This document shows, one piece after another, positions 1 to 59,875 of a stretch of 64,000 nt of DNA (position 1 is its first letter; every line of letters begins with the position of its first letter). The stretch lies in the UHGV virus genome UHGV-0305822, one strand, 5' to 3'. The translations under genes and the position numbers were made by a program. Below the pieces are notes generated by a model that was given only the letters and a program-made list of their open reading frames with translations, did no database searches and was not told the DNA's origin. Origin of the DNA: a virus.

Positions 1-31
1 AGTCAGTAATTTATGTCTTCAGCTTGAGAAA

Positions 32-829
32 GTGCCCTTTCACGGTGCGGACATTTTAACTAAACCGGAGCTCGCGTTATTAAGCGGGTTAATTGGTTTT
101 GAAGCAAAAACCATCAAAGTTGAGCAGGAACTTACACGAAACGATTTCGGCTCAACTTGGTACGAAAGTTTCTTCCGCTACGAAATGTTAAGTGATAAAG
201 CTATCAAACTCACTTACCGTTCTACCGACGACATCGTTTACCACATTTTAATTAGCGGCGAACCCCACCAGATTATTGAAGTCGAAGGAGAAAAATCCGT
301 GCGTACCTTAAAAGATGAATTAACTGATTTTGTTAACAAAATTGATAGCGTGGGTATCAGTGAATTATTATTCCCGATTCAACATCCAGAGTTGCTTGAC
401 GAGAAATGTGAAAACATGGTTATGGCGGTGCATTTACTTCCTGACCATCTTGCTATCTACCGTACACTTTCTAAGAACCAACTTAAAGTGTGGTGTCTGT
501 TAAAAGACCTTTTAACAGAGGCGGGGTGGTCGTGTAGTGTAGATGTTAACTGTGAAGGAGTTGCGTTCTTCATCACAATAGGCAATCGTAGTTTTTCTGT
601 CGATTTACCTACTCGCAGCTATTACGATTTCTTCCCGACCGCAGAAGGACGTACTGAAAAAGAACCCGCATTACTGCTCAGTGCTAAGTCGTCCAATGCG
701 CTAATGGCGCAACTAAAGGCAAAAGACGAGAAACTGGATGCTTTACATCTACCTATAATCGGAAAAGATTACGGTTGGGCTGACGTGCAAAAATACGGCA
801 GCCAACTGTTGTTTGTTGCTGACCTTTAA
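32..829 (+). CDS. hypothetical protein, paralog of 897..1670; frame is open to window start so may be 5' partial
   Basis: 265-aa ORF with GTG start; no in-frame stop between position 2 and 32; C-terminal ...QKYGSQLLFVADL matches ...QQHGKQLLFIADV of the next ORF. Confidence 0.6.
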   Translation: MPFHGADILTKPELALLSGLIGFEAKTIKVEQELTRNDFGSTWYESFFRYEMLSDKAIKLTYRSTDDIVYHILISGEPHQIIEVEGEKSVRTLKDELTDFVNKIDSVGISELLFPIQHPELLDEKCENMVMAVHLLPDHLAIYRTLSKNQLKVWCLLKDLLTEAGWSCSVDVNCEGVAFFITIGNRSFSVDLPTRSYYDFFPTAEGRTEKEPALLLSAKSSNALMAQLKAKDEKLDALHLPIIGKDYGWADVQKYGSQLLFVADL

Positions 830-855
830 TAAGTGAAAATACACTTTCTCTAACT

Positions 856-880
856 GCCGCGCTTTAGTCGCGGCTTTTGT
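856..880 (+). terminator. putative intrinsic terminator
   Basis: hairpin gccgcg-ctttagt-cgcggc followed by ttttgtt. Confidence 0.4.
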
Positions 881-896
881 TAAGAAGGAAATAGAA

Positions 897-1670
897 ATGA
901 AAGTCCATTTAGACGATATCTTTAAAACCGAACCGTATATGATCGAAGGTCCGCTAACATCACTACTACTCGCCGATAGATTAGATCGTACGCTGCAATT
1001 ACAATCGATCGAATCTGCACCCGTTGACGATGTAGAGCGTTACGAGCGCATCAACTATACGCGTGGTGAGTATCGTCGCTATAAGCCAAATTCACTAAGC
1101 GTTAAACTTTGGAAAGTAAGCACAGGTAAGGTATTAACTTATCGCACTGTCGGTAGTTATTACATTCAACAAGCCAAAGAATGGCTAGAGAAAGTTAAAG
1201 AACTGAACTTCGATCTACTGAGCAAAAAACTGCGCGATCATAACGCTAGTTTGCCGATACGTAATTATTTCTCCACGATTGAAAATAGCCGTTGTTTCGT
1301 TTCTCGCGAATCCATGATATTACCTGGGGATGATGTTCAGACAACACTAAAAGATGTGGTTGTGAAGAAAATCTTTCATGAATCTGAACACGTTGGGTTT
1401 CGTATCTATCTGACGCACAAGAGACCATTTACCGTGATTCACGTTGTTACCGCACCCGAAGGCTCAGCGGTTATTCGAGAACTTCCTGATGCTCGAGACC
1501 GTTGCCCTAATGAGCCGCTTTATTTAATGTCAGGAACAAAATCAACCGCGTTGATGTCCCGTTACAGCATGTTAGATGTTGTTGACGCTGCTATGAAACT
1601 AGGTTGGAAAGAAGTGCAGCAACATGGTAAACAATTGCTGTTTATTGCCGATGTAAAACTTAATCAATAG
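897..1670 (+). CDS. hypothetical protein, paralog of 32..829
   Basis: 257-aa ORF; SD aaggaaa upstream of ATG; shared C-terminal motif with previous ORF. Confidence 0.7.
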   Translation: MKVHLDDIFKTEPYMIEGPLTSLLLADRLDRTLQLQSIESAPVDDVERYERINYTRGEYRRYKPNSLSVKLWKVSTGKVLTYRTVGSYYIQQAKEWLEKVKELNFDLLSKKLRDHNASLPIRNYFSTIENSRCFVSRESMILPGDDVQTTLKDVVVKKIFHESEHVGFRIYLTHKRPFTVIHVVTAPEGSAVIRELPDARDRCPNEPLYLMSGTKSTALMSRYSMLDVVDAAMKLGWKEVQQHGKQLLFIADVKLNQ

Positions 1671-1682
1671 TGAGGTGGTACC

Positions 1683-2261
1683 GTGTACCGATTAATAGAA
1701 ATGCGAAAAGACGTTTGGTTGGAAAACCTCGTCGATGGGGAGCTTGAGGGAATAGAGCTTTCCTTACCAGAAAGAGCGGACACGGTATTGGTCTTTCTGA
1801 TAAAACAGGCAGCGAAGGAACCGGTAGGAATCTTCAGCGTGGACTATAAAGACCCACGAGGGATTCATTTACGGAACATTTGCAGTGGTTTAGAAAGCTT
1901 ACCGGCTAATCCGTTCTTAAACTACGCAAAACGTAAACTCCAGCCAGGGCAACATCTCTGGGTAGTTCTAGCGCCTGATACACGCATTATACGTGACGAC
2001 CTGACTGCGTTTGTCCAAGCAACGAAAGTCAGTTTGTACAATCCTAATGCGGATCGTACCGATATGCCGTTTACAATCACCTTAGAAGACGATGGAACGC
2101 AAGAGGGTATTGAGGCAATTACGGAATTAGTAAACTCTTATCCGGTAGCGTCTATTGAGTTAGAAAACCCAAACCGATTACCGTTGGGTGATTTACTCGA
2201 ATGGATTGAGCTGAATACCGAGTTCCTCATTAACTCCCGGCAGTACCGGTTCGATGTATAA
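1683..2261 (+). CDS. hypothetical protein
   Basis: 192-aa ORF, GTG start preceded by gaggtgg. Confidence 0.6.
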   Translation: MYRLIEMRKDVWLENLVDGELEGIELSLPERADTVLVFLIKQAAKEPVGIFSVDYKDPRGIHLRNICSGLESLPANPFLNYAKRKLQPGQHLWVVLAPDTRIIRDDLTAFVQATKVSLYNPNADRTDMPFTITLEDDGTQEGIEAITELVNSYPVASIELENPNRLPLGDLLEWIELNTEFLINSRQYRFDV

Positions 2262-2265
2262 CATC

Positions 2266-2299
2266 GGTGGGGGTAAACCCCCCACCTTTTATTTTTTTG
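2266..2299 (+). terminator. intrinsic terminator
   Basis: ggtgggggtaaaccccccacc hairpin followed by ttttattttttt. Confidence 0.65.
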
Positions 2300-2322
2300 T
2301 TCGTTAATATTAAAAATAATTT

Positions 2323-2345
2323 CAGATATATATTACCTAGGTGAG
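2323..2345 (+). promoter_or_regulatory. candidate phage promoter element, copy A (cAGATATATATTACCTAGGTGAG)
   Basis: AT-rich element containing TATATTAC, about 45 nt upstream of ATG 2392; related copies at 59801, 20449, 10961 and 29567. Confidence 0.4.
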
Positions 2346-2391
2346 AGTACAAAAGCTCTCACTTAATAAAACCATTTTAGGAGTATTAAAG

Positions 2392-2763
2392 ATGAAAAAC
2401 GAATTATTTAAAGACCCGTTTGTTGTATTAATGATCGTTACTCGCGCTGCCACTAACCCAGAAAACCTGAAACGTTTACTTACTAACGAAGCATACCTTA
2501 TCGAACAGCGTGACGCGCAGTTAGCCAAACCGCACGCTGAAGGCCAGGCGAAAGACCTTATCTCTATTTTCCGTAACGAAGAATGGCGTAAAAACAACGA
2601 GCTGTCCGACAACTTGACGGTTGCAATTGCAAAACTCTTGACACTGTTCAATCTTGACAAAGACATTAACCAAAGCCTTTCTACAGAAGAGCGTCTGGAA
2701 ATGATAAGAGGTATCGGAGATAGTTATACACAGATTAAAGCATTACCCAACACAGTTATTTAA
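2392..2763 (+). CDS. hypothetical protein, paralog of 59876..60265
   Basis: ORF track starts at 2341 but the ATG at 2392 has SD ttttaggagtattaaag and gives N-terminus MKNELFKDPFVVLMI, identical to the paralog at 59876. Confidence 0.7.
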   Translation: MKNELFKDPFVVLMIVTRAATNPENLKRLLTNEAYLIEQRDAQLAKPHAEGQAKDLISIFRNEEWRKNNELSDNLTVAIAKLLTLFNLDKDINQSLSTEERLEMIRGIGDSYTQIKALPNTVI

Positions 2764-2809
2764 TTTCATAATTTGTGGGAATTTCCCCATAACCCGAAGG
2801 AGCATTTCA

Positions 2810-3271
2810 ATGAAAACCTTTATCACATTCTTAATAACCATTTTAACTTTCGGCCTCAATAGCGCACACGCCGCTATCAACAGCTGGGAACAAATACAAA
2901 ACCCTGGCCAGGCAGTTTACGAAATTGAAGACACCGCCGGAAACGGACTGTCTATCAACTGTGACACAGAAACTGCGAATCGCAAATTTTACGGTCGCAT
3001 GGTTTGGTATTACGGTGAACCCGTAGGTGCAACTAACGCTGAAGATAACACGATGGATATTGTCGTAAACGGCAAAACCTATAACATCCCTACCGTGGAC
3101 GGTAGTGACAAAGCAGAACACGCTTGGGTTGCTTTCGTTAATGCTATCGGTAATGCCAAAACTTTCAGTGTGAGTATCAATGGTAACGATGCCGCTAACT
3201 TTACCGTAGAAGGCGAACGTCTGTCTGAAACTTTCTTCCAAAACTGTGGACACACCCGTCCTAACAAATAA
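2810..3271 (+). CDS. small secreted protein (predicted signal peptide)
   Basis: N-terminus MKTFITFLITILTFGLNSAHA-AIN looks like a Sec signal with AxA cleavage site; 2 Cys in mature part; SD gaaggag. Confidence 0.7.
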   Translation: MKTFITFLITILTFGLNSAHAAINSWEQIQNPGQAVYEIEDTAGNGLSINCDTETANRKFYGRMVWYYGEPVGATNAEDNTMDIVVNGKTYNIPTVDGSDKAEHAWVAFVNAIGNAKTFSVSINGNDAANFTVEGERLSETFFQNCGHTRPNK

Positions 3272-3293
3272 TTATTAGTCTTTTTTAGAGTGC

Positions 3294-3686
3294 GTGAAAA
3301 TGAATATCAGAACTATACTTTATACCATCATTATTTTCTGTGCGGTCGGAATTACTGGCACTTATGCTTTCGGTGATTCGGATGTCCGCTATTACGAACC
3401 GGCTCCTGACTCACCGATTATCAACCCGGATGAGACGCCTACGTTAATGCGCAGTTTCGGTAAACTACAAGTTTATCGTTTAGTGCGTGGTGAAACGTGT
3501 ACGGGATTACTCATTGCTGACACCCGTGCACAAGTCTACCAACGTCTGACGGATATCGCCTGCGAACAACCAAAGGTAATGTCGGTTAGCATCCATCCGC
3601 TATCAGTTGGTAACTATACCGCTGTGGACTTCTTTCACAACGCCGAATTAATCGGACGCGTTACCTTAAATCGTCCTGCCGAATAA
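3294..3686 (+). CDS. small secreted or membrane-anchored protein
   Basis: hydrophobic N-terminus ILYTIIIFCAVGITGTYAFG; start could be GTG 3294 or ATG 3300. Confidence 0.6.
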   Translation: MKMNIRTILYTIIIFCAVGITGTYAFGDSDVRYYEPAPDSPIINPDETPTLMRSFGKLQVYRLVRGETCTGLLIADTRAQVYQRLTDIACEQPKVMSVSIHPLSVGNYTAVDFFHNAELIGRVTLNRPAE

Positions 3687-3704
3687 TCTAAAGGAGTAGT
3701 TACA

Positions 3705-4190
3705 ATGAAACGTTTACACACTCTGATGTTCTTTCTGGTTTTCTTGTTTATCGGTGTCACACCAAGTGTAGATGCGGCCTCCGTAGACGAATTGCTTACC
3801 TGTGATGGAAACGCTTGGGAAGGTCAGCCAAATGCGTGCCCAAACATCAACGACTTGTACGATACCGATAAGTCGTTTAAAGCCGTTGTTGATAAAACAT
3901 TAGACCCTGTGGGACTGGATGGTATGTTCGGCTCTAAAGGTTACATGGATGGCCCTGGCGGTAACATGTATCCGGTAAACATCAACAACAAAATCTGGAT
4001 TGAAAGTGGCGGTTGTAAAGCTAACGCTTGTGGTTGGGAATACATCGTAACGCTATACAACCCACACACCAAGAAACTCGTCGGTTATTACTACAACATC
4101 GACCCCGGTTATCTGATCTGGTTCGGTGATATCGGTGTTGCCGAATTCGCTTACCTGGTTAAGAAATACGTAGAACAATCTAAATACTAA
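3705..4190 (+). CDS. small secreted Cys-containing protein
   Basis: signal-like N-terminus MKRLHTLMFFLVFLFIGVTPSVDA; 6 Cys; SD taaaggag. Confidence 0.7.
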   Translation: MKRLHTLMFFLVFLFIGVTPSVDAASVDELLTCDGNAWEGQPNACPNINDLYDTDKSFKAVVDKTLDPVGLDGMFGSKGYMDGPGGNMYPVNINNKIWIESGGCKANACGWEYIVTLYNPHTKKLVGYYYNIDPGYLIWFGDIGVAEFAYLVKKYVEQSKY

Positions 4191-4201
4191 GGACTTTTAT
4201 C

Positions 4202-4612
4202 ATGAAAACTATCATCAATACTCTTCTCATTGCAATGGCTGTTCTGTTCTCTGTCAACGCTACAGCAAAAACAATACAGTTGCCAGACAATATTAAGTAC
4301 GTCAATAGCACCGATGATTTCTATTGTACGGAAATTGACGGCTTGTACTGCCAGGCGAAGAGTCTGTTTAAATACAAAGGTAGCAGATACGTATTCATCG
4401 TTGAGCAGGGTGGTGCCTGGTGTTACGACAGCCCAATGTCCGTACTCAACCTCGAAACGTGGAAGGCCCAACGTCTCGAATACAACGACAAACGTCTGTG
4501 CTCTGGTAATAACAAACCATTCTTCGAAGTCGTAGATGGTGTGCCAATGGTAGGGATATTAGACACTTCGGAAAAACCTATCGTTGTAGCTATGGATAAA
4601 CTTAAAATTTAA
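4202..4612 (+). CDS. small secreted Cys-containing protein
   Basis: signal-like N-terminus MKTIINTLLIAMAVLFSVNATA; 4 Cys. Confidence 0.7.
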   Translation: MKTIINTLLIAMAVLFSVNATAKTIQLPDNIKYVNSTDDFYCTEIDGLYCQAKSLFKYKGSRYVFIVEQGGAWCYDSPMSVLNLETWKAQRLEYNDKRLCSGNNKPFFEVVDGVPMVGILDTSEKPIVVAMDKLKI

Positions 4613-4622
4613 GGAGTAACTC

Positions 4623-5012
4623 ATGCGTCTCGTCTGCGTTTTAGCATTCTTCTTCTCCCTGAGTGTAGCAGCATCTACTCAAGTTAACGATTTACTGCTA
4701 ACCCCAAACAACAATACCGATTACCAGTACAATCCTCCGGGGTTTGAAGTTTGTGAAGTCGGTGAAACAATCTGCCAAGAAGTCGGCGCAGACGGGCGCT
4801 ATATTCTGGTAAAAGCTGATGGTGGCACAATGTGTCCCGCAGGTTATTACTTTCTGCTCGATTCCGTCGCAAGAGAGGTTCTTCCTATCACCACGAAAAC
4901 GTGCGACCCTACCGTTGTCTTAACTCTCGCTAAAAGCAAATCTCGCGACCGTTACCTGATCGTTATCGAAGAACGGGGCAAGATGGCTGGTGCTATCGAA
5001 TTAGATCATTGA
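4623..5012 (+). CDS. small secreted Cys-containing protein
   Basis: signal-like N-terminus MRLVCVLAFFFSLSVAAS; SD taaggag. Confidence 0.7.
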   Translation: MRLVCVLAFFFSLSVAASTQVNDLLLTPNNNTDYQYNPPGFEVCEVGETICQEVGADGRYILVKADGGTMCPAGYYFLLDSVAREVLPITTKTCDPTVVLTLAKSKSRDRYLIVIEERGKMAGAIELDH

Positions 5013-5022
5013 GTGTAGTCTT

Positions 5023-5049
5023 GGCCCCGATACGTTCGGGGTCCTTTTT
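5023..5049 (+). terminator. intrinsic terminator
   Basis: ggccccgatacgttcggggtcc hairpin followed by ttttt. Confidence 0.65.
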
Positions 5050-5078
5050 ACGACATGTTTACCTAAAGGAGTATTAAA

Positions 5079-5555
5079 ATGCAATTATCTAACGTTTACC
5101 AAGCTGCGCAATTTCATCATGACCTGTCGGCTAAACCTGAACAAATTCGCCACAACTTAACGGTGGCCTGGAAACTGCTGCGTATCGCCGAAGCCTCGCG
5201 CCTTAACGATCAGTCGACGATTATCGAAACGGTGCGCACACTACATCCAGTCGACCTGGAAACAATCTGGACCTTTGATTTAACCCGAATTTATCACCGT
5301 CGTTTTAATGCGGCAGTTGATGCGATCCGTCCTTACTTTCACCACCTGCGAACAACACGCGAAAATGACACCGCACTTGAGTGGGTATTGGTACAAAGCG
5401 TATGGAGCGACTACATTTATCTCCTTTCTTTAGAGACGGGTGAATGTATCGTTGCTAACGAAGTTTTTTCAAGTAACGCAGAAATGTATCGTTCCTTCGC
5501 GACGATTAAAGGTGAAACACAACCTATTTTATCACTCACGCACTTAGGGCTGTAA
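5079..5555 (+). CDS. hypothetical protein
   Basis: 158-aa ORF with SD cctaaaggagtattaaaATG. Confidence 0.65.
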   Translation: MQLSNVYQAAQFHHDLSAKPEQIRHNLTVAWKLLRIAEASRLNDQSTIIETVRTLHPVDLETIWTFDLTRIYHRRFNAAVDAIRPYFHHLRTTRENDTALEWVLVQSVWSDYIYLLSLETGECIVANEVFSSNAEMYRSFATIKGETQPILSLTHLGL

Positions 5556-5557
5556 TT

Positions 5558-5591
5558 AGCCCGGCCCCGTTTACTCGGGGCTTCTTTTTTT
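5558..5591 (+). terminator. intrinsic terminator
   Basis: gccccgtttactcggggc hairpin followed by ttcttttttt. Confidence 0.6.
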
Positions 5592-5611
5592 GATCTAAAA
5601 GGAAAGACCAG

Positions 5612-6220
5612 ATGAACGAAATTACATTAGTTCGTTTTCTTGAAGCGATGCAAAATGCAGAGCGCTTTTCGCATACGCCTTTATTCATTGACTTAATGGA
5701 AGAAGAAGTAGAGGGCTTCCTGGCATACCCACGCTTACGGGAATATTTTAAACGCAAAACACCGACTGCTTACGAAAAGTTGGTTTACGCGCTTGAAAAC
5801 AGTACAACACTGTTAACGTCGCCTTTTAAGGCGTTGGAGGCTTTAGACCCGGCTGGTACCACAAGTATCCCACAACGTGTTGTGTTCTACTATATCGACC
5901 ACGATCGAATTAAAGCCGATGTTGTTAACTGGATCTCTGAAAACGCAGTTCCTGAAACACGCACTTTTAATCTCTGTCCCGTAGAAGAAGGGTGGAAGGT
6001 CGGTAGCCACTATTCTTACCCGTACCAATCCATTAAATCGCCGTTTTTATACCCGGTTTATCTGGATGATGTTACACCTGGAAATTGTATCCCGGTAACA
6101 AATCTGATCTGTACATTGACAATGGAAGTCTTAGCCACAAAGGCGGGACAGGTTTGGGTAGAAAACACGAAGAACGTCGATTATTGGACTTCAATGGGTT
6201 ATCACCTGTACACCAAATAA
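5612..6220 (+). CDS. hypothetical protein
   Basis: 202-aa ORF; SD aaaggaaag. Confidence 0.65.
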   Translation: MNEITLVRFLEAMQNAERFSHTPLFIDLMEEEVEGFLAYPRLREYFKRKTPTAYEKLVYALENSTTLLTSPFKALEALDPAGTTSIPQRVVFYYIDHDRIKADVVNWISENAVPETRTFNLCPVEEGWKVGSHYSYPYQSIKSPFLYPVYLDDVTPGNCIPVTNLICTLTMEVLATKAGQVWVENTKNVDYWTSMGYHLYTK

Positions 6221-6225
6221 CGTTT

Positions 6226-6268
6226 GGGAGAACCTTCGGGTTCTCCCTTTCTTTATTTTTTTCTTTTT
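6226..6268 (+). terminator. intrinsic terminator
   Basis: gggagaaccttcgggttctccc hairpin followed by a T-rich run. Confidence 0.65.
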
Positions 6269-6298
6269 ACACCACACTCCGTCTTTATGGAGGTGGGT

Positions 6299-8803: not shown

Positions 8804-8972
8804 TTGGTTCCGTCGTATTGTGGATGCGGCAGGGTTTGGCTTCATGTCCATTCTAGCGGTTCTTTATGTCATGTTTTGTGTGGTGATGATTTTATGGGTA
8901 GTTTCATCTTATCTGATTAAACTATCGTGGGGTTCAATTTGGCGTCAACGCGAATGCGAATGGCGGAATTAG
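8793..8972 (+). CDS. small membrane protein
   Basis: 59 aa, hydrophobic helix FGFMSILAVLYVMFCVVMILWVV; SD aaggag before ATG 8793. Confidence 0.45.
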   Translation: MQTDWFRRIVDAAGFGFMSILAVLYVMFCVVMILWVVSSYLIKLSWGSIWRQRECEWRN

Positions 8973-8982
8973 GAGAGGGAAT

Positions 8983-9081
8983 ATGGTTGTAGGGGTTCTG
9001 TTAACACTTGGCTCGTTGTGGTTAATTGGTAAAGGTTTAAACTGGCTGATTAAACGTCACCGTTGGGCGTTCGAAGATTAA
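8983..9081 (+). CDS. small membrane peptide (32 aa), putative
   Basis: SD aggagaggg then ATG; MVVGVLLTLGSLWLIGKGLNWLIKRHRWAFED; too short for the ORF track. Confidence 0.3.
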   Translation: MVVGVLLTLGSLWLIGKGLNWLIKRHRWAFED

Positions 9082-9138
9082 CCACCCAAATAATCCAGAA
9101 GATACCCTCCGGTGTGAGGGTATTGACAGGAGCAGAAA

Positions 9139-9267
9139 ATGACCACGATAAACGCTACGAATGTAGCGATATCCGCACTATACGACGCGGAACTTTCATG
9201 GGGTGGATTAATGATCACCACAGCCATATTAGCCGCTGCGGCTTTCGTCATCGCGCGTTGGTTTTAA
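9139..9267 (+). CDS. small membrane peptide (42 aa), putative
   Basis: SD caggagcag then ATG; C-terminal hydrophobic helix LMITTAILAAAAFVIARWF; preferred over the overlapping 9063..9317 track ORF. Confidence 0.3.
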   Translation: MTTINATNVAISALYDAELSWGGLMITTAILAAAAFVIARWF

Positions 9268-9298
9268 TTTTACTTTTTTGCGTCTCTAAGGTTTGCAA

Positions 9299-9742: not shown

Positions 9743-9808
9743 AAACAATAAAGCTCTCTTGGCGTACCTCACTATGAGTGTGAGAAATTTACGTCAGGAG
9801 AGCTAATT

Positions 9809-10403: not shown

Positions 10404-10964
10404 TTGTCGAGCTATCAATCGGCGGTACACGTTTTAATACTACACATCAACTCCGGGCGTTTCGTTATGTTAACGGTACGTAAAGAATCTGAAATTGGTA
10501 ACGATCTTTTTAATGCGCCCGAAGACTATAAAGTCGTTACCATTAACTGCGTAGGAGCGATGGGTCGCGGTATTGCACTCGCGTGTCGTGAACGCTACCC
10601 CAACCTTTATCAGGATTATCGTAAGCGGTGTCGTGAAGACGAAATTAAGATTGGAAGCGTTTACGTTTACTCTGACGAAAAGTGTATCTTGCTCCCCACG
10701 AAAACACATTGGCGTTTAAAATCCCAGGTTTCTTATGTTACTGCGGGCATTACCGCATTAGCAGACTGTGTTGAGGATCTGGATACCAGCGTTGCTATCC
10801 CTCCGTTGGGAATGGCAAATGGGTGGTTAGATTCCTGGGAAAGACAAGAAATCTTTTTGTGGCTTTACAAAAAACTTGAACCGAGGAGGCAGCGCTACAC
10901 GTTATACTTACCTGATAAGCTGTACCAAGAAGCAGAGTCATTAATTCCAAACTCTTTTAAATAG
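10404..10964 (+). CDS. macro-domain-like protein (possible ADP-ribose binding or processing); start uncertain (TTG 10404 or ATG 10467)
   Basis: segment VVTINCVGAMGRGIALACRERYP resembles the macro-domain loop N-x(6)-GGGV-x(2)-AI; later VAIPPLGMANGW resembles the second macro Gly loop; by-eye comparison only. Confidence 0.35.
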   Translation: MSSYQSAVHVLILHINSGRFVMLTVRKESEIGNDLFNAPEDYKVVTINCVGAMGRGIALACRERYPNLYQDYRKRCREDEIKIGSVYVYSDEKCILLPTKTHWRLKSQVSYVTAGITALADCVEDLDTSVAIPPLGMANGWLDSWERQEIFLWLYKKLEPRRQRYTLYLPDKLYQEAESLIPNSFK

Positions 10965-10984
10965 ATATTATCATTAGGGCACAC
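10961..10984 (+). promoter_or_regulatory. candidate phage promoter element, copy D (ATAGATATTATCATTAGGGCACAC)
   Basis: related to the AGATAtATATTAcC element; upstream of the SLT gene. Confidence 0.3.
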
Positions 10985-19795: not shown

Positions 19796-20457
19796 TCGTT
19801 TATAGTGAGGTCTTGTCAAAAGCCCCTCGGTTTTTACAAACTCACTTTATGTATAACGCACGGCAGTATTGGGGCTTTAAAGCCCCTTACTCCGAAGATT
19901 GGGAAGTTGTGGAAAAGTTAGCATTTGTGTTTTCTCTTTCGTTGTTGTGGGAGATCATTGCACTATACAACGCAGGTTGTGATATCCCGGAGAACGGCTT
20001 TTTCCAACAACACCTATTCCAAAAATTCACAGCATCGGTAGAAAATCATGAAGTGCGCAAGGAGTGTATCGGCTACGCCGAGCATTCTGAAGAATTGAGA
20101 AAGATTTCCAAATTAGTTATCACGCGGACATGGGCTGAATTCGAAACTTACCCCGAAAAAATAATTTGGTTTAATCGTGAACAGTTTATTAAAGAGGCAG
20201 TCAGTCAACATCCCGTTCGATTAATCGTGTTAAAGCCGTCCGATCTCGCCTTACGCCACACCTATTCGTCTCCAGAGGAAATCGTTTTTTCCTCTGGAAC
20301 AACAGATTATGGTATTTTTAAACAAGGAGATTCTTGGATTCTTCCACACGATTTAGACGGGTATTTGCTCAGTAGCGATCAAATACATTCGGGTTATGAC
20401 TCACAGGTGAAGGAGTTTACAGTCGATCCTTTTTTCGCTAAAAATATTCTTAGATAG
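19789..20457 (+). CDS. hypothetical protein
   Basis: 222-aa ORF overlapping upstream stop by 7 nt; SD aaggag. Confidence 0.55.
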   Translation: MLIVYSEVLSKAPRFLQTHFMYNARQYWGFKAPYSEDWEVVEKLAFVFSLSLLWEIIALYNAGCDIPENGFFQQHLFQKFTASVENHEVRKECIGYAEHSEELRKISKLVITRTWAEFETYPEKIIWFNREQFIKEAVSQHPVRLIVLKPSDLALRHTYSSPEEIVFSSGTTDYGIFKQGDSWILPHDLDGYLLSSDQIHSGYDSQVKEFTVDPFFAKNILR

Positions 20458-20475
20458 ATATTATCCAGGTGTAAC
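20449..20475 (+). promoter_or_regulatory. candidate phage promoter element, copy C (CTTAGATAGATATTATCCAGGTGTAAC)
   Basis: overlaps the stop codon of the upstream gene; about 20 nt upstream of ATG 20494. Confidence 0.3.
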
Positions 20476-27459: not shown

Positions 27460-27759
27460 ATGCGTTATCAAACGGAGATTGTGGAACGCTTAAGTGAAGG
27501 ATTGGCAAGTGTTAATTTAGAAACAGCGGCCGAATTTCGTGAAGCCTTCACTCACCCGTTTCCCGATCTGGAATCCTTTTGTTTAAAGGTCGCTGAGTAT
27601 TACTCGAATCTATTAGTACGTTACGGGTATGCGCCAGTACGTTCCGAACTTCCTGAAAACACGGAAGCTATCAGCTACTGGATTGACCTGCTTGAAGCAG
27701 AAACGTTATCCAATTTACGTAAGGCGGTAGACAATGAAACTCGAACCAGCGCGGCGTAA
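27460..27759 (+). CDS. hypothetical protein
   Basis: 99-aa ORF; SD taaggag. Confidence 0.5.
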   Translation: MRYQTEIVERLSEGLASVNLETAAEFREAFTHPFPDLESFCLKVAEYYSNLLVRYGYAPVRSELPENTEAISYWIDLLEAETLSNLRKAVDNETRTSAA

Positions 27760-28402
27760 AAAGGCGGAAGCCTACGCCTTACAAATCTTAAAGTTGGTAG
27801 ACCCTTCTGGCATTAATGCCGAAGCCGCGAAGAAAGCCTTCGCACGAATGACCGACGAACAGTTTAACCGACTTCGTAACGGTTTGCCTATTTACAACCC
27901 GGTGGGAAGTAAAGTCGAAATTGACCACCTGCGCAATATCGAGGTGTGCAAAATTCTCGGGGTAAACCTGGAGCAACGACTCTGGTTAACAGAACCAAAA
28001 ACGGGTGTTTATCACCGTACTCGTTACCCTCACTTAGTCTTACGCTTGCCTGTCCGTCGTCAGACACAGATGCAAGAAAAGAAAATGGCGGTTGCGAAAA
28101 ACGACAAAGTTCGCGATAAGCTCTCCGGTCAAGTCGTCGGACCTTCCAAAGCATCCGGGGTGTCCTTCCCAGAGGCATACATCATGTACTCCGATGGTCA
28201 CGACTGGACACTGAAAGAGTTCTTGTGGGCGCGTGGTGGTAACGACGCACTACAACGTGCTTTCTATCAATCGCTGCGCCAAACCGGTAAAGGGCGTATT
28301 GATTTGCCTGGAGCGGAGCGAACAAGTTCTAAAGCAACGCGTACGTGGTCGGCGTACCTAAAAGCGATGCATATCGGTAACAACATAGGCCATCCGTCAT
28401 GA
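27734..28402 (+). CDS. hypothetical protein
   Basis: 222-aa ORF overlapping the upstream gene by 26 nt. Confidence 0.5.
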   Translation: MKLEPARRKKAEAYALQILKLVDPSGINAEAAKKAFARMTDEQFNRLRNGLPIYNPVGSKVEIDHLRNIEVCKILGVNLEQRLWLTEPKTGVYHRTRYPHLVLRLPVRRQTQMQEKKMAVAKNDKVRDKLSGQVVGPSKASGVSFPEAYIMYSDGHDWTLKEFLWARGGNDALQRAFYQSLRQTGKGRIDLPGAERTSSKATRTWSAYLKAMHIGNNIGHPS

Positions 28403-29539: not shown

Positions 29540-29566
29540 TCTTACTACCTCAATTTCAAAAAGAAG

Positions 29567-29590
29567 TCAGACAGATATTATCTACGTGAG
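29567..29590 (+). promoter_or_regulatory. candidate phage promoter element, copy E (CAGACAGATATTATCTACGTGAGA)
   Basis: in the divergent gap between minus gene 29075..29539 and plus gene 29611. Confidence 0.3.
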
Positions 29591-29610
29591 ACATTCTTTA
29601 GGAGTGAATT

Positions 29611-48950: not shown

Positions 48951-50570
48951 GTGAATAAACTTAATTGGGTTGACTTTTATCTGCTCAATGTAAACAAGTC
49001 TCTTGTGTCGCGATTACGACCCGTCACGACCACGGATACTTTCCAGGGGTTAACAAAAAACTTTCACCCCGAAGGTCTTTACTCTACAGAGATATTTGGA
49101 CTCACGGGGAGTGAAGCGCGAGACTCTACTTTCTCTTATATCGATATTAAACTCGATATCATTTCGCCGACGGTGTGTTTGGCGTTATTCCAACTCAAAC
49201 AACTCTACGAAGAAATTTGTTCTGGAAAACGCTACGCAACGTGGAGCGAAAAAGAAAAAGATTTCGAACCGGCCTTGCCGGGAGACCCAGGCGCAGATAC
49301 CGGTTTTAACTTCTTCCTCAGTCACTATAACGATTTAAAACCTAAGCGTAACGAGTCCCTACAACGTGACGAAACCGTGGATTTCTTTTTGAAATTCCGT
49401 CCCGTTAGTCTTAGTCGATACGTTCTCGTGTTACCCGCGGGTTTACGCGATTTAGTAATTCGACAAGATGGTAGAGAACAGGAAGAAGAAATCGGCGGGA
49501 TGTATCGTCGGTTGGTATCACTCGCCAGGGCGATCCCTGACCGAGCAACCCGTGTTGAATTAACTAACCCCGTACGCTGGAAGCTGCAACAAACCTTCAA
49601 CGATATCTGGATGTATTTCTTTAACATCCAAGACGGTAAAGGGGGTTTCCAACGTCGTAAAGTGACGTCTCGTAAATTAATGAACGGGACACGTAACGTA
49701 CTGTCCTCGTTCTCGACGGGGTCTAAGTGCATGGGTCGTGAAGACGCTATTCGTCCCACCGACACCAAAATTGGTTTATACCAGGGTTTAAAAGCATTAC
49801 TCCCCGTTGCGCAATACCAGATACGTGAACGTTACCTCGGTAACATCCGTGCTGGTGACGGCAACCTTTACGGCGTAAACACCAAAACCCTTAAACGTGA
49901 ATTCTTGGAAGTAGGTGGTCGTGTATACGACACCTTTACCACCGACGATGGGATTGAATCCTTAATCAACCGAATGGAAGCTCGCGAGCTTCGCCATCAG
50001 CCGATTATGTTGGACGACACCCACTACGTTGCGTTGGTTTACCAAGACACCAAACATTTTAAGGTGTTCTACGATATTGAAGAACTTCCTAAAACGTTTG
50101 ACCGAAAATTCGTTCACGGTATGACGCTCGTCGAATTGCTTTATTTGTCGGGCTACGAACTTTGGAACGATTATTTCGGTTTCGTTACACGTTATCCCGT
50201 TACAGGCCGAGGCTCGACGTATTCATCGACCATAAGATTGGAGACCACCACATCATCTTTATACTTAAAAGAACTGGAAGATGACTGGGAAACTGAAAAA
50301 CCCCGAGGGGCTATCAGCTACCCTGACCGGTCGGTTCCTACCTTCGTTGAGTCTATGGCACCACACCCCTCACGTCTAGGTGGCTTAGGGGGTGACTACG
50401 ACGGCGATACCGGGTCGTTTAACGCGCCCATGTCCCAGGAAGCGCTCGAGGAAAACCGGAATTGGATACACTCGAAAAACTACTGGTTCGATTCTGATGG
50501 GAACTTTAAAATCAATCCTATCAACAACGTGATTAAACGTGCAACGCAAGCGTTATTAAAGAACCCATAA
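48951..50570 (+). CDS. multisubunit RNA polymerase beta-prime-like subunit, N-terminal half including catalytic site (phage split RNAP)
   Basis: FHPEGLYSTEIFG resembles beta-prime KPERDGLFCARIFGP; VLVLPAGLRDLV resembles LPVLPPDLRPLV; GKGGFQRRKV resembles GKQGRFRQNL; DYDGD at 50394..50408 resembles NADFDGD; GTG start after aggag. Confidence 0.7.
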   Translation: MNKLNWVDFYLLNVNKSLVSRLRPVTTTDTFQGLTKNFHPEGLYSTEIFGLTGSEARDSTFSYIDIKLDIISPTVCLALFQLKQLYEEICSGKRYATWSEKEKDFEPALPGDPGADTGFNFFLSHYNDLKPKRNESLQRDETVDFFLKFRPVSLSRYVLVLPAGLRDLVIRQDGREQEEEIGGMYRRLVSLARAIPDRATRVELTNPVRWKLQQTFNDIWMYFFNIQDGKGGFQRRKVTSRKLMNGTRNVLSSFSTGSKCMGREDAIRPTDTKIGLYQGLKALLPVAQYQIRERYLGNIRAGDGNLYGVNTKTLKREFLEVGGRVYDTFTTDDGIESLINRMEARELRHQPIMLDDTHYVALVYQDTKHFKVFYDIEELPKTFDRKFVHGMTLVELLYLSGYELWNDYFGFVTRYPVTGRGSTYSSTIRLETTTSSLYLKELEDDWETEKPRGAISYPDRSVPTFVESMAPHPSRLGGLGGDYDGDTGSFNAPMSQEALEENRNWIHSKNYWFDSDGNFKINPINNVIKRATQALLKNP

Positions 50571-50579: not shown

Positions 50580-53500
50580 ATGCTGCTCATTAAACAGTTT
50601 AACCAACGCTTCTCGGTGCGTAAAACTGACGAGTTTGGTAATCCGAGGATTATCCCGCTCGAGAAGCTACAGATACCACGTGGTTCTGTACTCCATGTCA
50701 TTGATCTCGACCAGGTGGTATTAGCGCCACCTGCAACACTCGAGATTATTCAACCGTTAGAAAAACCTGCACAGGTTCGTCACCACTTTAAATTACCGGA
50801 AGACGGTATTAGCGGCCATCCGCGCAACAAACCTGTTCAGGGCCAAGAACGTGCTATCTTTGCCTACCACCGTGCAAACCGCCCGATGCGTCGTCTTACC
50901 TCAGACGATCTGGTTCGCAAAGACTTAAAAGTTCTCCTGGTCGAGAACTACACACCAATGCTATCGCACTACTACTATCCTGACACCCAGTTAGCCTGGT
51001 ACGATAGACTGCGTAACATCCAACTGTTGATGATTAACCAGTTCAAATACGACACGCAAGAATACATGCGTCAGAACTATTTCGTTATTGAACTGGGTTC
51101 GACTCTACCTTCGTTCCAGAAGTTTCAAACAACCTATAACGACCGCGTTAAGAGCAAGATTGAGAAGTTCCAGGACTTCAACTTGCTGTGGCTATTGGAG
51201 TTGTTTGCTTGGGCTTATGGAAAACAATCCGATTCCTTATTCTCGGGAATGGATTTAACTCAGCTGTCACGAATGAACTTTATCTTCACCCACAACACGG
51301 GCTTTACGTCCATGAACATGGGTGTTGTAGAGAAAATGCGTAAGTCGTCCGGCGGTCGTTTAAGTGACGACCAAATGGCCAGGATGTTCTACCGTACGCT
51401 GGTGCGTGTAATGACACAAGCACCGTCTAACGCGTACGAAGCGGAATTCCTAACGCCTGAAGGTGACGAGCGTGTTTTCCTTAAAGACGTCGAAGAAGAA
51501 ACCGTTGATGTTGTCGACGATGACGATGTTGTTAATGACGCTGTGGTGGAATCCGATAACACCTTCGATGAAAAAGAAGACGTTGTTATTGAAGAACCGA
51601 AGGAAGACGTCAAACCGACGACCATCGTCGTCGAGAAAGTCATTCCGCACGACGAGATTATTAAACAGGAAGCACAACGCTTAGCTGAAGCGGGCCGCTT
51701 AAGTTCTAAAGCATATCAGTTCCTGTCAGAATCGTCTAAACGTTTCGTTCAGCTGCCTAACCCGTATAACCCGAAAGAAACCTACGGGGAAGCACTGACT
51801 GTTCACGAGAAAGATATCGTCGTTAAGGCCGAACCGAAAAAAGTTCAGCGGCTTGTTACCGATGAAGGGTGGGCAGAGAACGTCACCGACCAAATGGTGA
51901 AACAATACAACCAGACCATGATGACCAAAGACGTACTGGCGGCGGTCGCCAGTTCACAACGTTTGGGTCTGGCGGTTCACAACCACACGGTGGAAAAAGA
52001 AGTTTCTGTTACAGGAACTATCGAGCACCACACTTTACGTGTTCAGCCAGTCGGTGGTGAGCCAACAACAGTTCGCTTCTCTATCCCGGGCTTGACCGAG
52101 GACGGTACTTGGGTCGCTAATGGTGTCGAATACACCATGCGTCGCCAACGTGTGGACTTACCGATTCGTAAGGTTGCACCGGATACTGTCGCACTGACTA
52201 CCGCCTACGGTAAAAACTTTGTCCGTCGTAGTGATAAGGTCGCGAACGATTACGGTCGTTGGTTAACCAACGCGATTATCACACGCGCCGTTGACCCGAC
52301 AAACACCGAAGTCACCGATGCACGTTTAGCAAATGTGTTCGATCCTACGCAACATCTGCCTCGTCAGTATACGGAGATTGCACGTCGTATTGCCAGCTTT
52401 AATGCGAACGGCTATATGTGGAACTTCGACTACAAAGAAACCGTTAACTTCTTTAACGACGAGCAACTCAGAGACGCCGATGCTGCCAAACTTCTGCCAG
52501 TGGCGAAACGTCCGCGTAGTGAAACAATCCTGGCAATGGATGACAAATCCATGCTTTACGGTGTAAAAGGAAACAAAGTTGAACCGGTGGGGACTATCGC
52601 AGAGGTACTGGGCTTTAATAACCAGAAAGTGCCTCGCGAAATGACCGAGCTGTCTTTGATGGGTAAATCTTTGTCGCTTGGTTTTATCTTCTCGTTCTAT
52701 CTTGGACTCCAGGGAATGTTGAAACATTTCGGTATCCAGTACGAGTTGGTTCCTACAGGACAGCGTGTTGATAAGAATGCCTACGACAGTATTATTCGAC
52801 TACAAGACTGTAAACTTTTAGTTACTTGCGATAACGATCAGCAGAGGATGATTCTGCATGGTTTGGATCGCTATCTCAAACACCTGGTTGCTTATACCGA
52901 ATCAGAAGCAGACCGAGAAGACATTTACCTGAACTTATTACGTGAAGCAGATGGCCTAACACCACGGTACATCAACGAGCTGAAACAGATGCGGTCCGCG
53001 TTTGTTGACGACATGCACGCACGTATCCTCAGGAAAATGGGTGAGCCGGAAACCTTTATTGGCTTGCTGGAACGTTCTAACGAACTGTTACAAACCGACC
53101 ACTCTTTACCAGAGATTAACGGCGATGAAATGATGTTCTTAGGAAATCAGAGGATTGCCTACCACATCTATACTGCGATGGTCAGAGCGATGCGTAACTA
53201 CAATAACGCACCGGGCAGTAACCGTAAGTTCGAACTGACGCAAGACATGGTTTGGGGTGCTATTAACTCCGACCCGTCGGTACTTTTGGCACCAGGCGCT
53301 AACCCTATCCAGTCAATTAAAGAAAAAGACGTTATTACGATGGGGGGTACAGGTGGTCGTAATCGTAAAACGATGGTCTACCACACGCGTGAGTTCCAAC
53401 CCAGTGATATCGGGATAGTCTCGGGTAACACCGTAGATAACGGCGACGTAGGGATTACTGCTTTCGTCACCAATAACCCACGTTTTGACACCGTTGACGG

Positions 53501-54746
53501 TACTACGTTTAAGCGTGAAGAGAAAACCCCGAAACCGAGCGATACCCTTTCGTTTATTGACGGGTTAGTACCCGATACGTTAATGGACGATGCAAAACGT
53601 CAAAACTTCGTTGGGATTCAGTTAGGTTCTGCCACCAGTTGTAATGGGGCAACCACAACCCCGTATCGTACTGAACAGGAGAAATTCGTCGCTCACCGTA
53701 CTTCGGTGAAACATGCACGCGTTATTGATAAAGCAGGTAAGATTACTGGTCTGTCGAAAGACCACATTGAAATTACGTACGAAGATGGAAGTAAAGAAGC
53801 CTTTCCTCTAGGGCGCTGGTTCGGCCCCCACGAAGGTACCTTCTATCCGCACACCTTGGTAACACGCTGGAAAGCCGGTGACAAGCTCCCGGCCGGAGCA
53901 GTGATTACGTACAACGAGCAACACTTTGAACCTGATATTTACGATCCTACTCAGGTTTCCTGGAAAAACGGGGTGCTGGCCACCGTTGCTTTATTAGAAG
54001 CTGAAGAAGTTATCGAAGACTCCAACGCAATTTCTGAACGGTTCGCGAAGAAAATGGTGGGGCAGGTAACAAAGCTGAAAGAAGTGACGATTAACAGCAA
54101 CCAGATGCTTTTGGAAATCGTGAATGAGGGCGACCACGTAGACGTCGATACAATCCTATGCACGTTTACTGACGACTTGACGGGCGATATGAGTGCCTTT
54201 AGTCAGGAAGCAGCCGCAACGTTGCAAAGTTTAAGTTCGTACGCACCTCGTGCAGGGGTACGTGGTATCGTGGATAAAATCGAAGTGGTGTATCACGGTG
54301 AAACCGAAGACATGACGCCAAGCCTTGCTGAACTGGTGCGTAAATACGACAGAATTCGTCGTAAAGCCGCACTGGCAGTCGGACGCGGTGATCCGGTTTC
54401 AGGCAGTGTAAACGGCGACTACCGTGTCGAAGGTGTACCCTTGGCCTTTAACTCACTTTGTGTTCGATTCTTTATTACACACGACGTTGAGATGGCCGCT
54501 GCGGATAAGATGGTTATTGCTAACCAGCTAAAAACCACCGTACAAGAAGTCATGTACGGGGATAACAAAACAGAGGATGGTGATGACCTGGACGTGTTGT
54601 TCGGTCGTGATTCCGTCGATGCGCGTATCGTAGGTTCAATCCAACGTATCGGTACCGCGAATGCTGTAGGTGAACAAGCCGGGATTCTCATCGGGCGTAT
54701 ACTCGATGGGGAGGCTGTGCCTGATTTACCCGCGACACTTAAATAA
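50580..54746 (+). CDS. large protein, probable second RNAP subunit (beta-prime C-terminal-like or beta-like; unassigned)
   Basis: 1388-aa ORF immediately downstream of the beta-prime-N-like gene; DIGIVSGNTVDNGDVGITAF weakly resembles the beta-prime segment [22 protein letters not shown]; acidic insertion at about 51490..51630. Confidence 0.45.
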   Translation: MLLIKQFNQRFSVRKTDEFGNPRIIPLEKLQIPRGSVLHVIDLDQVVLAPPATLEIIQPLEKPAQVRHHFKLPEDGISGHPRNKPVQGQERAIFAYHRANRPMRRLTSDDLVRKDLKVLLVENYTPMLSHYYYPDTQLAWYDRLRNIQLLMINQFKYDTQEYMRQNYFVIELGSTLPSFQKFQTTYNDRVKSKIEKFQDFNLLWLLELFAWAYGKQSDSLFSGMDLTQLSRMNFIFTHNTGFTSMNMGVVEKMRKSSGGRLSDDQMARMFYRTLVRVMTQAPSNAYEAEFLTPEGDERVFLKDVEEETVDVVDDDDVVNDAVVESDNTFDEKEDVVIEEPKEDVKPTTIVVEKVIPHDEIIKQEAQRLAEAGRLSSKAYQFLSESSKRFVQLPNPYNPKETYGEALTVHEKDIVVKAEPKKVQRLVTDEGWAENVTDQMVKQYNQTMMTKDVLAAVASSQRLGLAVHNHTVEKEVSVTGTIEHHTLRVQPVGGEPTTVRFSIPGLTEDGTWVANGVEYTMRRQRVDLPIRKVAPDTVALTTAYGKNFVRRSDKVANDYGRWLTNAIITRAVDPTNTEVTDARLANVFDPTQHLPRQYTEIARRIASFNANGYMWNFDYKETVNFFNDEQLRDADAAKLLPVAKRPRSETILAMDDKSMLYGVKGNKVEPVGTIAEVLGFNNQKVPREMTELSLMGKSLSLGFIFSFYLGLQGMLKHFGIQYELVPTGQRVDKNAYDSIIRLQDCKLLVTCDNDQQRMILHGLDRYLKHLVAYTESEADREDIYLNLLREADGLTPRYINELKQMRSAFVDDMHARILRKMGEPETFIGLLERSNELLQTDHSLPEINGDEMMFLGNQRIAYHIYTAMVRAMRNYNNAPGSNRKFELTQDMVWGAINSDPSVLLAPGANPIQSIKEKDVITMGGTGGRNRKTMVYHTREFQPSDIGIVSGNTVDNGDVGITAFVTNNPRFDTVDGTTFKREEKTPKPSDTLSFIDGLVPDTLMDDAKRQNFVGIQLGSATSCNGATTTPYRTEQEKFVAHRTSVKHARVIDKAGKITGLSKDHIEITYEDGSKEAFPLGRWFGPHEGTFYPHTLVTRWKAGDKLPAGAVITYNEQHFEPDIYDPTQVSWKNGVLATVALLEAEEVIEDSNAISERFAKKMVGQVTKLKEVTINSNQMLLEIVNEGDHVDVDTILCTFTDDLTGDMSAFSQEAAATLQSLSSYAPRAGVRGIVDKIEVVYHGETEDMTPSLAELVRKYDRIRRKAALAVGRGDPVSGSVNGDYRVEGVPLAFNSLCVRFFITHDVEMAAADKMVIANQLKTTVQEVMYGDNKTEDGDDLDVLFGRDSVDARIVGSIQRIGTANAVGEQAGILIGRILDGEAVPDLPATLK

Positions 54747-56562: not shown

Positions 56563-57291
56563 GTGAGTGCGATTGAAACAGCCCGTCGTGACCCTACTAA
56601 GGTTCATGCGGACTTGGTAAATAACGGCACGGTCACCACTACCAAAGGGGGATGTTACATTTACATCCCCGTTGGGTTTGTGGCGAAAGAGTTGGCGGTT
56701 ATTTCTTCTACGGTAACAATTGTAGGGATCTTTGCGATTTCTACCGACCGTAAAACATATGGGGTGTCCAGCGTTACAACGCTTATGGAGATTACCCCAA
56801 CGGCGTTTGAAGAGATCGACGTCTTTGGTGTTCCTTATTACGAATTTCGTTTTGATCCCGGTACAGTGGTTTTCCCCAACCGCAATTTACAGGTGTTGTC
56901 TCACCCTATTTACAACATTGCGTCGTATATTTACGACTTTGGTAATCGTCCTTTCTGGTTTACTGCAGCGGATGATGCTGAACTCTTGGCACCTGATAAA
57001 GTCAAGAAATGGAACGGTTTTACTGTATTTGCCGATCAGATTACCGCTGACGTTTACGCAGCACACACGCAGCGTAAAGTAGGTGATCCGAGAACGTTCT
57101 TCCGTTACACGCTGAAGAAAGATAGCGATCTTAACAACCCTGTGCAGTTTATTCCATTGCGCAGTGGTTCACTTAACAAAACGTCGAGACTGGCGAAACT
57201 TGCAGACGTAGAACTTAAACGTGGTATTCGTTCTGCGCTACAGGTTGACCCAGTGCGTGCCGAACCGCTCGAAGATTTGTTTATGAGGTAA
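56563..57291 (+). CDS. hypothetical protein
   Basis: GTG 56563 after taggaggtgatc; the track start at 56557 is too close to the SD. Confidence 0.55.
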   Translation: MSAIETARRDPTKVHADLVNNGTVTTTKGGCYIYIPVGFVAKELAVISSTVTIVGIFAISTDRKTYGVSSVTTLMEITPTAFEEIDVFGVPYYEFRFDPGTVVFPNRNLQVLSHPIYNIASYIYDFGNRPFWFTAADDAELLAPDKVKKWNGFTVFADQITADVYAAHTQRKVGDPRTFFRYTLKKDSDLNNPVQFIPLRSGSLNKTSRLAKLADVELKRGIRSALQVDPVRAEPLEDLFMR

Positions 57292-59740: not shown

Positions 59741-59783
59741 GGCTAGTCTATTCATCGAATAGACTAGCCCACCTTTATTTTAA
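59741..59783 (+). terminator. intrinsic terminator
   Basis: ggctagtctattcatcgaatagactagcc hairpin followed by cacctttatttt. Confidence 0.65.
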
Positions 59784-59800
59784 CCCTATTGAAAATTATC

Positions 59801-59824
59801 TTAGATATATTTTACTTAGGTGAG
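59801..59824 (+). promoter_or_regulatory. candidate phage promoter element, copy B (TTAGATATATTTTACTTAGGTGAG)
   Basis: about 50 nt upstream of ATG 59876; near-identical to copy A upstream of the paralog at 2392. Confidence 0.4.
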
Positions 59825-59875
59825 CGTTGTAGAATTACACGCTATTCGACTGTTTAACCTAAAGGAGTATTAAGA

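Follow-up and report, generated by a model that had tools for sequence, protein, structure and literature searches.

Jumbo phages that carry their own RNA polymerases all possess a conserved AT-rich motif, centred around position -10 before early operons and assigned to the virion polymerase, and wherever transcripts have been profiled this motif turned out to be the early promoter (PMC7598289). Early transcription of phiKZ and AR9 is independent of the host polymerase (PMC7598289). The early promoter of phiKZ, mapped by primer extension and differential RNA sequencing, is listed as TATATTAC (PMC7058600 Table 2) and has been described as an extended -10 element combined with a T-rich block upstream of -19 (PMC8244752), the early promoters of 201phi2-1 are conserved at -10, -20 and -30 (PMC11512511), and those of AR9 follow the pattern AAATATATATTAT-(6N)-G at 41 sites, the starts of which were mapped by differential RNA sequencing and primer extension (PMC5312081). 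Here we describe five related AT-rich elements, A to E, on the plus strand of UHGV virus genome UHGV-0305822, of which a stretch of 64,000 nucleotides (hereafter the window) was analysed. The window is identified by sequence as an SPN3US-like jumbo phage, and the five elements are very probably the early promoters of this phage, read by a virion multisubunit RNA polymerase.

An initial inspection of the letters of the window (the sequence-only reading) had reported five related copies, and all five read as described: A at 2323-2345 (cagatatatattacctaggtgag), B at 59801-59824 (ttagatatattttacttaggtgag), C at 20449-20475 (cttagatagatattatccaggtgtaac), D at 10961-10984 (atagatattatcattagggcacac) and E at 29567-29590 (tcagacagatattatctacgtgag). 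The GTGAG that was given as part of the motif is lacking from D, the 3' part of which fits TAGGTGAG of A only after a one-base shift. The conserved element proved to be longer than first described, extending over about 32 nucleotides from an AAA block at -29 through +3. Its layout consists of AAA at about -29, a T-rich block at about -22, (C)AGAT from -20 to -16, the core (A/T)(T/G)AT(A/T)TTA(C/T) from -15 to -7, a six-base spacer and a G. A weight matrix trained on sites of Erwinia phage Stratton has its maxima of information content at AAA (-29 to -27), T (-23 to -21) and AGAT (-19 to -16). The G seven bases beyond the core, a feature of the sequence from which start sites can only be predicted, is present at 5/5 window sites and 18/18 Stratton sites. 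Under the AR9 rule of core, six bases and G, transcription is predicted to start at G2343 (A), G59822 (B), G20471 (C), G10978 (D) and G29588 (E).

The elements fall into two classes. Promoters A and B (class I) share the consensus AGATATAT(A/T)TTACYTAGGTGAG, follow strong terminators (2266-2286 for A and 59741-59769 for B) and precede an inverted repeat, while C, D and E (class II) share the core AGATATTAT, have a short or different leader and lack a hairpin. Promoter A extends over 2314..2345 on the plus strand, with its AAA block at 2314-2316, the core ATATATTAC at 2328-2336 and the spacer CTAGGT, and scores 48.6 bits against the Stratton matrix; promoter B (59793..59824, plus strand) has the core ATATTTTAC at 59807-59815 and the spacer TTAGGT and scores 41.5 bits. 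The three class II promoters, also on the plus strand, occupy 20442..20473 (C, core 20456-20464, 36.5 bits), 10949..10980 (D, core 10963-10971, the weakest at 28.0 bits) and 29559..29590 (E, core 29573-29581, 37.3 bits). The leaders, from predicted +1 to the start codon, measure 49 (A), 54 (B), 23 (C), 87 (D) and 23 (E) nucleotides. Shine-Dalgarno (SD) sequences stand separately downstream of the elements, consistent with the earlier view that these are not ribosome-binding sites.

Similar to phiKZ, copy A contains the octamer TATATTAC, which occurs only once in the window; the sequence-only reading had named it as the phiKZ early promoter, an attribution that the published table (PMC7058600 Table 2) and our reading of the phiKZ genome both confirm. 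In the first 50 kb of phiKZ, TATATTAC-6N-G is located upstream of genes, and AAA and TTT blocks precede the core. The window thus has in common with phiKZ the octamer, the 6N-G spacing, the upstream AAA and TTT blocks and a split multisubunit virion polymerase. It differs in the CAGAT and YTAGGTGAG flanks, which are specific to the SPN3US-like lineage, and in the use of AGATATTAT by 3/5 copies. The AR9 core is almost identical to that of the window elements and is likewise followed by a six-base spacer and a G start, which is the basis of the +1 predictions made here; AR9, however, has uracil-containing DNA and a Gram-positive host, and neither the CAGAT and GTGAG flanks nor a 5' hairpin has been described there. 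The promoters predicted for N1M2 and OBP display an extended consensus that, as in the window, spans TTTCA, the core and GTG. The consensus TTTCARRYAKATATTATYWAAGTGWA published for Klebsiella phage N1M2 (PMC7058600) matches copy A alone at no more than 3 mismatches (3 over 26 nucleotides, with zero such matches expected by chance) and B to E exceed that number; the N1M2 and OBP promoters are, however, bioinformatic predictions from a different lineage. The arrangement of core, six bases and G in virion polymerase promoters is thus conserved between Bacillus phage AR9, phiKZ and phages of Salmonella and Erwinia. A literature search with the SPN3US-type motif strings gave no relevant paper.

The elements stand out from chance. 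The weight matrix, which covers 34 positions and was trained on 18 Stratton sites only, detected exactly these five elements in the window and scored each of them, on the plus strand, at 28-49 bits, the sole other match above 8 bits being the reverse strand of E. Maximum scores in 200 first-order Markov simulations had a mean of 8.9, a 95th percentile of 15.4 and a largest value of 28.7 bits. The five copies reported initially are the complete set in the window, with D marginal. The motif search also contradicts a random placement, which had been named as an outcome that would speak against a promoter: all five predicted starts lie 23-87 nucleotides 5' of a plus-strand start codon, upstream of genes as first claimed, against a background of about 5.9% of position/strand pairs, which gives P ~7e-7. 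A degenerate pattern modelled on the copies in the window, which gave 4 matches where 0.01 were expected, was discarded because a pattern drawn from the same sites is circular, and the N1M2 consensus and the Stratton matrix were used in its place.

When window positions 1-20000 were compared by megablast with 50,697 phage records, similarity was found at 2284-2359 only, which is element A itself, the matches being to Machinavirus phages of Erwinia and to the SPFM and SPLA phages of Salmonella. The window, SPFM4 and Huxley share the 26-mer TTTCAGATATATATTACCTAGGTGAG without a difference, and it was found at 14 loci distributed over 8 IMG/VR jumbo-phage contigs (152-245 kb), with no more than three loci per contig and unalignable flanks. 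A slightly degenerate 20-mer is present in 49 copies on 15 contigs, confined to a single strand within any contig, and in the complete Stratton genome (244 kb) 22/22 matches to the core pattern, among them the 18 sites on which the matrix was trained, are on the plus strand. Synteny was assessed over Stratton in full and over SPN3US 150001-200000 (segment L066), a range outside which the B region of SPN3US lies. Counterparts of all five elements are present at syntenic positions in Stratton, and those of A, C, D and E in the SPN3US segment, with the adjoining intergenic DNA diverged. The counterpart of B is at Stratton segment L019 position 15833, while those of C, D and E are at 25523, 16642 and 34218 of Stratton segment L018 and at 34048, 24958 and 41606 of L066, respectively; in the case of D the leader is conserved as well. 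Conservation of this kind, syntenic and on a single strand amid diverged flanks, is what a functional strand-specific signal would be expected to show. The closer relatives of the window are metagenomic contigs only (IMG/VR 3300029126_000001, 97% identical over 12 kb, and 3300045988_113438, ~94%), and searches for related loci with single downstream proteins returned only near-identical relatives. An IMG/VR search with the class II 14-mer AGATAGATATTATC was uninformative, as the matches listed were mostly to unrelated contigs.

It could be argued that the conserved sequence is not itself a promoter but the binding site of a phage regulator or a site of recombination. Element E is nearly palindromic, and promoter A sits at a break in homology with related phages, both of which would fit such a role. 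The strand specificity of the motif (22/22 in Stratton and 5/5 in the window), its fixed spacing to an invariant G, its fixed position 5' of genes and its match to promoters with experimentally mapped starts all argue for a promoter, however, and any recombination at repeated promoters would follow from the fact that they are repeated and would not amount to an alternative function. We therefore regard a regulator or recombination site as hardly credible.

The window also encodes a candidate for the enzyme that would read these promoters. The head-packaged polymerase of SPN3US comprises gp240, gp241, gp218, gp42 and gp244 (PMC5105663). The homologue of gp240, the virion RNA polymerase beta'-N subunit, is encoded at 48951..50570 (plus strand; phrog_2986, E = 7e-234), and that of gp241, the beta-N subunit, at 50580..54746 (plus strand; phrog_3148), both PHROG families being of phage RNA polymerase beta-like subunits and the latter protein displaying amino-acid identities of 82% to Stratton, 76% to SPN3US and ~32-35% to phiKZ-type Pseudomonas phages. 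A 222-residue protein encoded at 27734..28402 (plus strand; phrog_3233 'RNA polymerase beta subunit', E = 6e-93) is the probable beta-C subunit and is equal in length to SPN3US gp218 (222 residues; PMC5105663 Table 5). The gene at 56563..57291 (plus strand; phrog_2926 virion structural protein), which is located directly 5' of the head maturation protease gene and shares 76% nucleotide identity with the SPN3US segment, probably encodes the beta'-C subunit as the gp244 homologue by synteny. The window thus appears to encode a multisubunit virion-packaged polymerase, its packaging into the virion being extrapolated from SPN3US. In this model the packaged enzyme would be injected with the phage DNA and would read the five promoters.

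An alternative is that the elements are host sigma-70 promoters, which consist of the hexamers TTGACA at -35 and TATAAT at -10 with 16-18 nucleotides between them, with the core acting as the -10 box and the host polymerase transcribing the early genes as in T4. The core does include TATATT or GATATT, which resemble TATAAT, and a sigma-70-like match at 20416-20445 lies just 5' of C. In the three window segments scanned, however, no sigma-70-like call overlapped any of the five cores, and such matches were fewer than in dinucleotide-preserving shuffles (20 against 33.8, 25 against 34.0 and 11 against 23.2; 1-40000 and 44001-64000), a depletion that fits a phage which avoids promoters of the host polymerase or does not depend on them. 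The CAGAT and YTAGGTGAG flanks and the invariant G seven bases past the core have no sigma-70 counterpart, and the motif is common to phages of Salmonella, Erwinia, Pseudomonas, Klebsiella and Bacillus that all carry a virion polymerase. Together with the independence of phiKZ and AR9 early transcription from the host enzyme (PMC7598289), these observations make host promoters very improbable. The proposal in the sequence-only reading that the motif is a candidate phage-specific promoter is thus supported by the AR9 and phiKZ layout, by synteny and strand specificity, by the polymerase genes and by the lack of coincidence with sigma-70 calls.

Several points weigh against this interpretation. 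The start sites and the early timing are drawn by analogy with AR9 and phiKZ. The 28.0 bits of D fall below the largest single score of the null simulations, and the Stratton training set contains homologues of the five window sites; as the training sites are homologous to those scored, the matrix is independent of the sequence of the window and not of its ancestry. Element D precedes a transglycosylase gene, which has no obvious early function, and the class II sites could form a different temporal class. It should be emphasized that, although the motif, its spacing, strand bias and synteny, the polymerase genes and the covariation of the hairpin described below are all observed, we infer the identity of the polymerase, the exact starts, the early timing and the role of the hairpin.

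The temporal argument can be extended to the view that C, D and E are middle promoters of a non-virion or modified polymerase, such that only A and B are read by the injected enzyme. The core (ATAT(A/T)TTAC against AGATATTAT), the leader length and the hairpin separate the two classes consistently, D precedes a lysis-type transglycosylase, and in phiKZ early and middle promoters are present together at some genes (PMC8244752). The class II core, however, is the one found in the early promoters of AR9 (ATATATTAT-6N-G) and in those of OBP and N1M2 (consensus KATATTATY), while the middle promoters of phiKZ have a different motif, TACT near -22 (PMC8244752). In addition, one of the class II sites of Stratton is located 5' of two genes with the annotation RNA polymerase beta subunit (29939-34284), which would be needed early if they encode the non-virion enzyme; this putative assignment was made because the pair is far from the gp240/gp241 homologues (214957-220752). 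A middle-promoter role for class II is thus unlikely, and the reading of all five elements as early promoters of the virion polymerase is preferred.

The context of the two classes differs. The sequence-only reading had placed the copies usually downstream of a terminator, which applies to A and B and not to C, D and E. Upstream of A an intrinsic terminator at 2266..2296 on the plus strand consists of GGTGGGGGTAAACCCCCCACC followed by a T-run (8 pairs, 7 of them G-C), and upstream of B a terminator scan identified a 13-pair stem at 59741..59769, also on the plus strand. At C the stop codon of the upstream gene is the TAG at 20455-20457, and at D that of the upstream macro-domain gene is the TAG at 10962-10964, each within the motif (core ATAGATATT). 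Because the TAG of the motif is the upstream stop codon, promoters C and D overlap the ends of coding sequences, with no terminator in between.

The transcripts of the class I promoters would begin directly in a stem-loop of variable sequence. The predicted 5'-terminal stem-loop of transcript A (2343..2360, plus strand) has the sequence GAGAGU-acaaaa-GCUCUC, with a minimum free energy (MFE) of -8.3 kcal/mol and z = -7.8 relative to dinucleotide shuffles, while transcript B is predicted to contain a 5'-proximal stem-loop (59823..59843, plus strand) in which AGCGU pairs with ACGCU outside an inner helix (MFE -7.4 kcal/mol, z = -1.5). Folding of the 33 nucleotides from the GTG in 44 distinct copies of class I, some in the window and others in related phages (loci L001-L055), gave a mean MFE of -7.4 kcal/mol against -3.1 kcal/mol in dinucleotide shuffles and a mean z of -2.4, with z below -1 for 84% of the copies. 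In 31/44 copies a helix of 5 bp or more starts exactly at the predicted +1, compared with a mean of 10.3 and a maximum of 17 in the shuffles. The arms vary and the pairing is kept (GAGATTGC/GTAATCTT, GAGCATTGA/TCAATGCTT, GAGGAT/ATCCTC and GAGAGT/GCTCTC), with compensatory changes such as a fifth pair that is G-C, U-A or A-U. As MAFFT placed the 44 copies gap-free, and thereby left the arms out of register, column covariation was replaced by helix searches anchored at +1. A control in which arms were combined across copies discriminated no more than moderately (61% against 24% with a helix of 7 bp or longer), since the 5' arms of many copies have GAGAGTT or GAGATT in common. The hairpin appears to be a property of class I: the mean z was -3.9 for class I (n=10), -0.33 for class II (n=18) and -0.15 for the phiKZ TATATTAC promoters (n=7). 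Among the seven phiKZ promoters only one, that of the nuclear shell gene PHIKZ054 (L187 45568-45648), has a strong +1 hairpin (-8.8 kcal/mol, z = -2.2). Rfam and tRNA scans of the window gave no matches. The accessible literature yielded no description of a start-anchored hairpin at phiKZ-type early promoters. The promoter family itself is already well described, and its presence here is a largely ordinary finding, to which the covarying hairpin anchored at +1 may be the addition.

What the hairpin does can at present be proposed from its position and pairing. In E. coli, 5'-terminal stem-loops stabilise mRNA. The best reading is that the class I stem-loop has the putative role of shielding the 5' ends of the earliest mRNAs from 5'-end-dependent decay. 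Similar to the stabilising stem-loops of the ompA and T7 gene 10 leaders, it starts at, or within 1-2 nucleotides of, the predicted 5' end; in contrast with those leaders, that end is itself predicted here and the function is putative. That the helix was lengthened by a G-U wobble in 22 copies and by A-C in 2 points to a structure of the sense strand, that is, of RNA, an argument reduced in force by the fact that the asymmetry is owed partly to the T-rich sequence after the stem.

The same position could be taken to mean that the inverted repeat acts in DNA, aiding promoter opening or escape in the manner of phage N4, or that it is an early attenuator or pause site rather than a stabiliser of mRNA. 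The N4 virion polymerase uses hairpin promoters. The helix of class I copies starts exactly at the predicted +1, 2-4 T residues follow many of the copies, and the SPN3US homologue of A has a second, terminator-like leader hairpin with a T-run. The stems, however, are AU-rich and weak (~-7 kcal/mol), and the majority are not followed by the long U-tract that characterises an efficient terminator; a terminator function for the class I hairpin was, on account of these weak AU-rich stems, judged unlikely. The seven phiKZ promoters, which have the same core, lack a systematic hairpin (mean z = -0.15), which indicates that the hairpin is not required for recognition; class II sites lack it also, and the tolerance of G-U pairs fits RNA. 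In N4, furthermore, a conserved DNA hairpin located upstream is read by a single-subunit enzyme, whereas here the hairpin is 3' of the predicted +1, its arms are variable and the polymerase is multisubunit. An action in DNA or as an attenuator is thus possible, although rather doubtful, and protection of the 5' end is favoured. In the SPN3US homologue of A (L066 ~15705-15765) the +1 hairpin is followed by the GC-rich leader hairpin and T-run, GGCTACCttcgGGTAGCC tattctttttt; this second hairpin could be an attenuator or the delimiter of a short RNA.

The genes downstream of the class I promoters are related to each other. The first genes after A (2392-2763) and B (59876-60265) are paralogues that belong to phrog_27024, a family of unknown function; the two agree completely over the SD region and the first 44 coding nucleotides, and the remainder is much more diverged. 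Gene conversion, or a constraint acting on the mRNA start, could account for the identity at the gene starts. In four related contigs (L043, L033, L025 and L042) promoter A runs directly into the homologue of the gene at 2810, relative to which the window contains, at ~2349-2790, an extra hairpin, leader and 123-residue gene. Homology thus breaks at promoter A, which by analogy suggests that modules may be exchanged at promoter copies. In T4-like phages, PeSL cassettes consist of terminator and early-promoter repeats that shuffle genes (PMC4122927). Similar to these, A and B each combine a terminator with a promoter and precede small genes of unknown function, with an indel junction at A. In contrast with the window elements, PeSL promoters are host sigma-70 early promoters, and only one junction was seen here, such that the resemblance is one of analogy and not of membership.

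These features lead to a tentative proposal, to which we attach less weight than to the promoters themselves, that the strongest early promoters of SPN3US-like jumbo phages are compact mobile cassettes composed of a terminator, a virion-polymerase promoter and a stem-loop of free sequence at +1. The stem-loop would be an RNA signal of the first transcripts, and recombination between copies would move modules of leader plus gene. If this were true, the stem-loop of the cassette could protect 5' ends or mark the first transcripts for handling in, or export from, the early infection compartment. For SPN3US a genetic system exists. The five promoters, with their predicted starts and terminators, provide an early transcription map for an uncultured SPN3US-like jumbo phage, and TTTCAGATATATATTACCTAGGTGAG is a metagenome marker of this phage group as well as a candidate orthogonal promoter for work on the virion polymerase.

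The class II promoters display features of their own. Element E is located in a divergent intergenic region and is near-palindromic, its reverse strand reaching 18.2 bits, and that of the corresponding SPN3US site 24.3 bits, with a G at the matching +1. The possible reverse-strand promoter occupies 29566..29597 on the minus strand, with the core AGATAATAT at 29583-29575 and a predicted +1 at the G complementary to C29568. As the reverse strand fits the promoter matrix and divergent genes flank E, a second, minus-strand activity is possible, and E may be bidirectional, also driving the minus-strand gene at 29075-29539. The gene 3' of D encodes an SLT transglycosylase, while the other genes downstream of the elements belong to PHROG families of unknown function. 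The D leader (10986-11041), which precedes the transglycosylase gene at 11065, is kept in Stratton and SPN3US as GGGCAC..ACAAAGGAG..GTCCGCGCCGT. An SD sequence within this leader is followed, both in the window and in SPN3US, by a frame of about 14 codons that starts with CTG in the former and ATG in the latter and ends in GTATAA in both. This frame may encode a leader peptide, or the leader may be an RNA element that regulates the lysis-type gene.

Repetition in the window extends to its terminators. Those at 13813-13834, 14427-14452 and 33771-33798 share the stem CCCTACTCC..GGAGTAGGG, which is also present in Erwinia phage Huxley, and those at 38948-38973 and 62625-62651 share the stem TACCTACCTCC..GGAGGTAGGTA. 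Shared-stem terminators located between convergent genes were scored on both strands. For phiKZ, too, a conserved terminator motif has been reported (PMC10914365).

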